This document shows, in pieces, positions 54,800 to 54,916 of a stretch of DNA of 64,000 bases. The stretch is from Escherichia coli (lineage in GTDB: Bacteria > Pseudomonadota > Gammaproteobacteria > Enterobacterales > Enterobacteriaceae), in assembly GCF_009931435.1 (NCBI RefSeq), contig NZ_CP043414.1. One strand, 5' to 3'. Made by a program: the position numbers and the translations under genes. Numbering within the stretch: the stretch's first letter is position 1; every line of letters starts with the position of its first letter. Below the pieces are notes generated by a model that saw only the letters and a list, made by a program, of their open reading frames with translations, made no database searches and was not told where the DNA came from.

Positions 54800-54844
54800 A
54801 TGAATGCTGCTATTTTCCGCTTCTTTTTTTACTTTAGCACCTGA
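54800..54844 (+). CDS. pheM: pheST attenuator leader peptide (14 aa, 5 Phe)
   Basis: atg aat gct gct att ttc cgc ttc ttt ttt tac ttt agc acc tga = [14 protein letters not shown]. Confidence 0.85.
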
Positions 54845-54893
54845 CTCCAGGAGGCTAGCGCGTGAGAAGAGAAACGGAAAACAGCGCCTGAAA

Positions 54894-54916
54894 GCCTCCC
54901 AGTGGAGGCTTTTTTT
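54894..54916 (+). terminator. pheST attenuator terminator
   Basis: gcctccc agtg gaggc followed by ttttttt, 50 nt after the pheM stop. Confidence 0.8.

Follow-up and report, generated by a model that had tools for sequence, protein, structure and literature searches.

The window analyzed in this study is a stretch of 64,000 nucleotides of Escherichia coli DNA, and the part described here lies downstream of rplT, which ends at position 54677. It carries, on the plus strand, the short open reading frame pheM (54800-54844), followed by pheS (55128-56111), pheT (56126-58513), and ihfA (58518-58817). The extents of the last three genes were taken from the ORF list and from the annotation of E. coli strain 2013C-4282, to which the segment 54680-55135 is 100% identical. 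In the RefSeq annotation of that strain, the order is thrS, infC, rpmI, rplT, "Phe leader region," pheM (WP_001386830.1), pheS, pheT, ihfA, and btuC, with which the ORFs of the window agree. The same rplT-pheM-pheS-pheT-ihfA arrangement is present in E. coli K-12 MG1655, in which pheM is b1715. The feature named Phe leader region in RefSeq (54794-54918, plus strand) has the extent of the match to the Rfam family RF01859 (Phe_leader), which covers the full model (positions 1-125) with a score of 74.4 bits (gathering score, 55; E = 1.4e-11). The type III secretion effector gene espL1 is annotated upstream of thrS in 2013C-4282 and would correspond to about 50180-50978 on the minus strand of the window (via positions 1-799 of locus L004). 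The window strain is probably an EHEC/EPEC-like E. coli rather than K-12.

The pheM ORF reads ATG AAT GCT GCT ATT TTC CGC TTC TTT TTT TAC TTT AGC ACC TGA, and its translation has phenylalanine at codons 6, 8, 9, 10, and 12 (starting at 54815, 54821, 54824, 54827, and 54833, respectively), i.e., at 5 of the 14 codons, three of which are consecutive. Among the 921 short ATG ORFs of the window (8-40 amino acids), pheM is the most Phe-dense and the shortest with at least five Phe residues, and the chance expectation for ORFs with at least five TTY codons in 13 codons is 0.13 per window. ORFs that overlap pheM or lie on the minus strand, e.g., 54740-55048 (minus) and 54804-54938 (plus), were rejected as unsupported; they cross the conserved RNA structure or the repeat described below. 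Downstream of pheM, an intrinsic terminator was identified on the plus strand by folding, the Rfam match, and a terminator scan. Its hairpin (54890-54913) is composed of GAAAGCCUCC (54890-54899), a CAGU loop, and GGAGGCUUUU (54904-54913), which form 10 bp, including 5 G-C pairs, with an energy of about -14.4 to -15.1 kcal/mol; the hairpin runs into the U7 tract (TTTTTTT, 54910-54916). The G+C core of the stem, GCCUCC, begins at 54894, 50 nt past the end of the stop codon at 54844, whereas the whole stem, including the A-U pairs, begins 46 nt past it. The original prediction, which had described a 14-codon ORF with five Phe codons followed 50 nt later by a GC-rich hairpin and a T7 run, is therefore borne out in each of these details, the 50-nt gap being that to the G+C core.

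The upstream boundary of the pheM unit is formed by the intrinsic terminator of rplT (54686-54711, plus strand), a hairpin of AAAGAGGGAG and CUCCCUCUUU with a U tract. The fold of 54680-54720 has an energy of -15.8 kcal/mol (z = -3.2), and the hairpin is kept directly after rplT in other genera. A putative pheM promoter can be read on the plus strand, with the -35 element TTGACT at 54733-54738, a 17-nt spacer, and the -10 element TTCAAT at 54756-54761, and transcription would start near 54768. A consensus promoter scan reported none; it missed this promoter because the -10 element, which has no A at position 2, is non-canonical. A probable Shine-Dalgarno sequence, AAGGU, is located at 54785-54789 (plus strand), 11 nt before the ATG, which is a long spacing, and the ribosome would bind there. 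The arrangement TTGAC(A/T)-17 nt-TTCAAT is conserved at the promoter position in most genera, and AAGGTAAC(T)GCAAGC(A)ATG is conserved in most genera among the leaders compared; this conservation supports the candidate promoter at 54733-54761 and the candidate Shine-Dalgarno sequence at 54785-54789. In five Buttiauxella loci, the pheM ribosome-binding site is almost directly after the rplT terminator; the distance from rplT to the ATG is 77-82 nt (about 120 nt elsewhere), and the TTGAC-17-TTCAAT promoter is absent. Read-through from rplT or a different promoter may drive pheM in these Buttiauxella genomes. On the other hand, the interval from rplT to the promoter is about 125 nt longer in Cedecea neteri, Kosakonia sp. 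S29, and Phytobacter ursingii, and the added stretch ends in an ERIC-like sequence ("...GGGTATAAC").

The fold of 54790-54920, which the original prediction had put forward as its own check, has an energy of -53.7 kcal/mol, compared with -32.6 ± 3.3 kcal/mol for dinucleotide shuffles (z = -6.4; 0 of 200 shuffles were as good), and the terminator, the 1:2 helix, and, in the nascent-RNA folds described below, the antiterminator were all recovered. In the minimum free energy (MFE) structure of the whole leader, a long and nearly continuous 1:2 helix is accompanied by the separate terminator hairpin. Segment 1, the 5' strand of this helix, spans 54806-54838 and contains the Phe codons, and segment 2, the 3' strand, spans 54854-54887, as located by the MFE structure, the duplex energy, and RNAalifold (both on the plus strand). 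The helix has 29 pairs and a duplex energy of -30.1 kcal/mol. The antiterminator (plus strand) is composed of the 5' strand GGAGGCUAGCGCG (54850-54863), which shares positions with the apex of the 1:2 structure, and the 3' strand GCGCCUGAAAGCCUCC (54884-54899); when 54846-54903 is folded in isolation, its energy is -17.0 kcal/mol. The antiterminator and the terminator are mutually exclusive because 54890-54899 is shared by both pairings, serving also as the 5' arm of the terminator.

Attenuation is decided during RNA synthesis; therefore, the nascent transcript ending at 54903, i.e., before the 3' arm of the terminator exists, was folded, and the ribosome was represented by 30 masked nucleotides around the A site. 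In the nascent fold without a ribosome, the 1:2 helix is present and AGCCUCC (54893-54899) is free for the terminator. When the ribosome is masked at the codon of Phe8, Phe9, Phe10, or Phe12, 54850-54863 pairs with 54884-54899, and this pairing, GGAGGCUAG.CGCG (54850-54863) with CGCGCC...AGCCUCC (54884-54899), uses up the 5' arm of the terminator; within it, GGAGGCU (54850-54856) pairs with the AGCCUCC of that arm. When the ribosome is at the stop codon, the mask covers GGAGGCU, no antiterminator is formed, and the terminator is free. The three predicted folds match the classical states, which are read-through on shortage of Phe-tRNA(Phe), termination on its sufficiency, and termination without translation. 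Equilibrium folding of the full-length leader always favors the terminator, even with the ribosome mask, and is no test of the model; from this outcome we infer a kinetic choice. In stability, the antiterminator (-17 kcal/mol) exceeds the terminator (-14.4 to -15.1 kcal/mol) by a small margin, and it prevails only in the nascent-RNA (kinetic) simulation, which the attenuation model expects and which is not a proof of that model.

To compare relatives, contigs of one genome per species were searched with a degenerate pattern that targets the conserved coding sequence for the C terminus of rplT, a region outside the attenuator. Of the 69 loci obtained, about 58, from about 20 genera, have pheS within 256-588 nt after rplT; the genera include Escherichia, Salmonella, Citrobacter, Enterobacter, Kluyvera, Kosakonia, Buttiauxella, Cedecea, Siccibacter, Mangrovibacter, and Edwardsiella. 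All of these rplT-pheS loci carry the peptide MNAA[I/L]FRFFFYFS[T/A] (one metagenome-assembled genome has ...FRT). Their U tract ends at a constant 117-121 nt from the ATG. In the three usable Aeromonas loci, no pheS follows rplT, and these loci are therefore uninformative on pheM. Forty-four distinct leaders from about 20 enterobacterial genera were folded one by one. The terminator core GCCUCC/GGRGGC is paired in all 44, and the 1:2 helix has 23-31 bp across them. In every one of the 44, a simulated stall at Phe8, Phe10, or Phe12 ties up at least five of the terminator arm's six core bases, whereas a ribosome at the stop codon does this in none. In untranslated nascent RNA, weak local pairs partly occupy the terminator arm in about half of the other genera.

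RNAalifold on the same 44 leaders recovered the 1:2 helix, with one two-sided compensatory pair (U-A in 23 leaders, U-G in 11, and C-G in 10), in which the change of the Phe9 codon from TTT to TTC is matched by a change from A to G on the opposite strand; several G-U/A-U exchanges were also observed in the helix. The terminator is under-called by RNAalifold because the MAFFT alignment slips its 5' arm by one column in some rows; for this reason the per-sequence folds were used instead. The synonymous sites of pheM are almost invariant across the leaders, which is what a constraint on RNA structure predicts, so there is no reason to invoke a function of the peptide.

The spacer between the terminator and pheS is 211 nt long (54917-55127), compared with 39-67 nt in most genera. 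The placement of the attenuator upstream of pheST by the original prediction was correct, but the two are not adjacent, as pheS starts at 55128, 211 nt past the T run, and the prediction left unmentioned a palindromic, MITE-like repeat of 145 bp that takes up 145 of these 211 nt. This repeat (54936-55082, plus strand) lies between the terminator and pheS in the 5' untranslated region (UTR). Its terminal inverted repeats are AGCCTGTCTCATCAGGC (54941-54957) and GCCTGATGGGATAGGCT (55065-55081), and it folds as one long hairpin of -68.5 kcal/mol (z = -5.7). It is missing in about 644 of 5425 complete E. coli genomes (about 12%), and the empty site in strain TUM14771 reads GAAAAAATTAAGTCC. Diverged copies are found elsewhere, e.g., between nuoL and nuoM; the median number of places per E. 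coli genome is 5. The insert shares with ERIC/IRU and RSA repeats the character of a palindromic, MITE-like, transcribed intergenic element of low copy number. Its identification as a canonical ERIC/IRU (about 127 bp) was rejected, as just a central core, matching at 18 of 21 bases, aligns (score 27 against a shuffle maximum of 23) and the termini differ from the TATAC.../...GTATA of the ERIC consensus (PMC2759123). RSA repeats are 150/151 bp long and were present in 6 copies in the original K-12 annotation (PMC5172473), and the insert (about 145 bp, median of 5 places), which fits these repeats in length and copy number, is a candidate RSA. A match of the insert to Rfam sX9 on the minus strand (54955-55020; 27 bits against a gathering score of 44) was dismissed as chance. 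On the minus strand, both ends of the insert (54942-54957 and 55064-55081) are small palindromes in their own right, and the left one, followed there by TTTTTATTTT, was scored as terminator-like.

Other genera have other sequences in this spacer. Citrobacter werkmanii, with a spacer of 167 nt, has a canonical ERIC directly after the T run of the terminator, and C. youngae, with 126 nt, has a shortened one. The 346-nt spacer of Intestinirhabdus alba contains an element of roughly 280 bp, the ends of which are related to those of the E. coli insert and which occupies the same TAAG site; those of Siccibacter, Edwardsiella, and Mangrovibacter (88-128 nt) contain other sequences. Compared in this way, the pheM-pheS spacer reads as a recurrent landing site for small repeats. 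A small hairpin (55099-55114, plus strand) is also predicted 14 nt upstream of the pheS ATG at 55128, just 5' of the pheS Shine-Dalgarno sequence. It takes the form GUGUCA-CCAC-UGACAC (alternatively, CAGUG/CACUG) with an energy of -7.1 kcal/mol, and its z-score in the window alone is only -1.3. At the same place, other genera have other stems, namely CGGUG/CACCG, CCGGCA/UGCCGG, GGCCA/UGGCC, and GUCC/GGAC; a hairpin of at least 4 bp is found in 36 of 38 distinct sequences, and the z-score is below -1.5 in 29 of the 38. The predicted hairpin next to pheS is thus conserved in structure, not in sequence.

Within E. coli, the 125-nt leader is present in 5425 of 5426 complete genomes, in 5400 of which its identity is 99% or higher, and its annotation is always pheM. 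A K-12-like genome differs from the window in its host strain and at eight positions of the region: 54845, 54776 in the 5' UTR, and six bases of the downstream insert. Only the first, which is C here and A there, is within the leader, and it is located in a hairpin loop. The K-12 attenuator of pheST-ihfA (b1715) accordingly has the identical 14-residue peptide at the same position between rplT and pheS, 124 of the 125 nt of the Rfam-defined leader, an identical terminator, antiterminator, and 1:2 helix, and the 145-bp insert before pheS. The pheM leader and the pheST attenuator of E. coli K-12 were reportedly described by Fayat et al. in 1983. With this single loop base as the difference from the K-12-like genome and at least 99% identity in 5400 of the 5425 genomes, the description of the attenuator as intact was accurate.

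In its general design, the element is similar to the trpL, hisL, leuL, thrL, and ilv attenuators, in which regulatory codons cluster within a leader ORF, the pairings 1:2, 2:3, and 3:4 are alternatives, and the terminator is intrinsic; these attenuators differ in their regulatory codons and operons. The E. coli pheL-pheA attenuator (RF01859) is closer still; its leader ORF is rich in Phe codons, these codons form part of the anti-antiterminator, the mechanism is shared, and its terminator resembles the RF01859 consensus AAAGCCUCC...GGAGGCUUUUUU. However, it regulates pheA, which encodes a biosynthetic enzyme and not a tRNA synthetase, and it is absent from this stretch. The pheL peptide differs from the PheM peptide.

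Almost certainly, the element is the leader pheM of pheST(-ihfA) and belongs to the trp/his/phe class of transcription attenuators that work through a translating ribosome. The peptide, its gene context, and the way RefSeq annotates identical DNA point to this identity, as do the Rfam match, the terminator, and the alternative pairings, and no result of the analysis speaks against it. In silico, we found the Phe-rich leader ORF, the terminator before the genes, the mutually exclusive antiterminator, the 1:2 pairing that includes the Phe codons, the RF01859 score, and the PheM identity, all of which define such an element. The designation as the textbook phenylalanine attenuator is upheld by the peptide, terminator, pairings, RF01859 match, rplT-pheM-pheS-pheT-ihfA context, and RefSeq annotation; it is to be read as the pheST type and not the pheA/pheL type, both of which are in the same Rfam family. 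The pheM-pheST attenuator is already known, and the one described here is ordinary, with nothing new in it. Its value is for annotation only, as that of a normal thrS-infC-rpmI-rplT-pheM-pheST-ihfA region of E. coli with a working-looking attenuator, in which the feedback control of PheRS should be as in K-12.

In the proposed mechanism, transcription would start about 30 nt upstream of pheM from the putative promoter TTGACT-17-TTCAAT, and the 14-codon ORF would be translated by a ribosome during synthesis of the leader by RNA polymerase. With ample Phe-tRNA(Phe), the ribosome would reach the stop codon (54842-54844) and cover GGAGGCU (54850-54856), which would be the only sequence able to sequester the 5' arm of the terminator; with this sequence covered, the hairpin at 54890-54913 would form and transcription would stop at U7. 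When Phe-tRNA(Phe) is scarce, the ribosome would stall on the Phe codons (54815-54835), so that segment 1 is blocked and 54850-54863 is left free to pair with 54884-54899 once the latter has been made; the terminator would then not form, and polymerase would read through into pheS-pheT-ihfA. Without translation, both the 29-bp 1:2 helix and the terminator would form. Since PheRS charges tRNA(Phe), the operon would be under negative feedback by its own product.

That attenuation controls the pheST operon of K-12 in vivo, with read-through responding to how much charged tRNA(Phe) is available, is attributed by citing papers to Springer et al. (1983, J Mol Biol 171:263; reference 50 of PMC9291695) and to Trudel et al. 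(1984; reference 37 of PMC5371410). The pheM leader contains a transcriptional pause with a half-life of about 25 s, which NusA does not prolong and compensatory stem mutations do not rescue (PMC9291695). These results suggest that the pheM pause, in contrast to those of hisL and trpL, is independent of a NusA-stabilized hairpin (PMC9291695), so that the coupling of transcription and translation is less well understood here than in trp and his. A cleavage site of RNase III maps inside the pheM attenuator structure, and the downstream message decays faster in the wild type (PMC5371410). The genomic site 1799278 of that study corresponds, via the K-12 pheM coordinates, to position 54792 of the window, and a basal helix of 54792-54800 with 54915-54923 is present in our fold. 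Such a helix would be possible only in read-through transcripts, which fits the conclusion of that study (PMC5371410). In a TraDIS analysis, pheM is among the genes without insertions (PMC5821084), which polarity on pheST would explain.

Two other readings concern the identity of the element. A chance ORF combined with a hairpin that separates the rplT operon from pheST as a constitutive terminator or an insulator, without any sensing of phenylalanine, would be in line with the need of rplT for a terminator and with the abundance of short ORFs (921 of 8-40 amino acids). However, rplT already has its own terminator at 54686-54711, only 0.13 ORFs this dense in Phe codons are expected per window, and the peptide is nearly invariant over about 20 genera; moreover, the Phe codons are inside a conserved helix of 23-31 bp, an antiterminator overlapping the terminator is found in 44 of 44 leaders, and attenuation in vivo has been published. 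This reading is exceedingly improbable and has effectively been refuted already. That the element might be a pheA-type (pheL) biosynthesis attenuator and not the pheST type is hinted at by the consensus line of RF01859, which translates to a more pheL-like peptide. As the family covers Phe leaders generically, with a pheL-like consensus, the family match alone cannot separate pheL from pheM; the separation comes from the peptide, which is PheM (WP_001386830.1) on identical DNA, and from the neighbors, pheS and pheT downstream and rplT upstream, so that we dismiss the pheL type altogether.

The remaining two readings accept the attenuator and add to or diminish its role. The terminated leader, of roughly 150 nt, or a product cut from it by RNase III might also function as a small regulatory RNA in trans, a role put forward for the leaders of certain other attenuators; the terminated leader is stable, highly structured, and ends in a terminator hairpin, its nucleotides are conserved even at synonymous sites, and RNase III processes it (PMC5371410). 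Since the 1:2 helix fully explains the conservation at synonymous sites and the leader does not accumulate in an rnc mutant (PMC5371410), we regard a role in trans as highly unlikely. Control of pheST might instead be dominated after the attenuator, through mRNA stability or translation, by the 145-bp insert and the hairpin at the pheS ribosome-binding site, with attenuation being minor. Read-through transcripts would have the -68.5 kcal/mol hairpin of the insert in their 5' UTR, E. coli genomes are polymorphic for the insert, the structure of the hairpin beside the ribosome-binding site is kept across genera, and RNase III cleavage at the locus speeds the decay of the downstream message (PMC5371410). 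On the other hand, the attenuator is far more conserved (six of the eight differences from the K-12-like genome are in the insert), and the insert is absent from about 12% of E. coli genomes and from most other genera, which makes such dominance very unlikely.

With ribosome-mediated attenuation at pheM as the preferred reading, the insert and the predicted hairpin at 55099-55114 might still form a second layer of control after attenuation, acting on mRNA stability, as an RNase III entry site, or in the insulation of the ribosome-binding site. We consider this doubtful; if true, such a layer would make PheRS expression differ between strains. The insertion hotspot of repeats and the pheS hairpin are modest leads for work on small repeats and on 5'-UTR structure, respectively, and neither is a discovery. 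At the far end of the operon, between ihfA and btuC, the plus strand at 58759-58917 matches the Rfam STnc540 small RNA family (RF02082) with 67.4 bits (gathering score, 38), and this match includes a strong terminator hairpin, AAAAAGGCCGC...GCGGCCUUUUUU.
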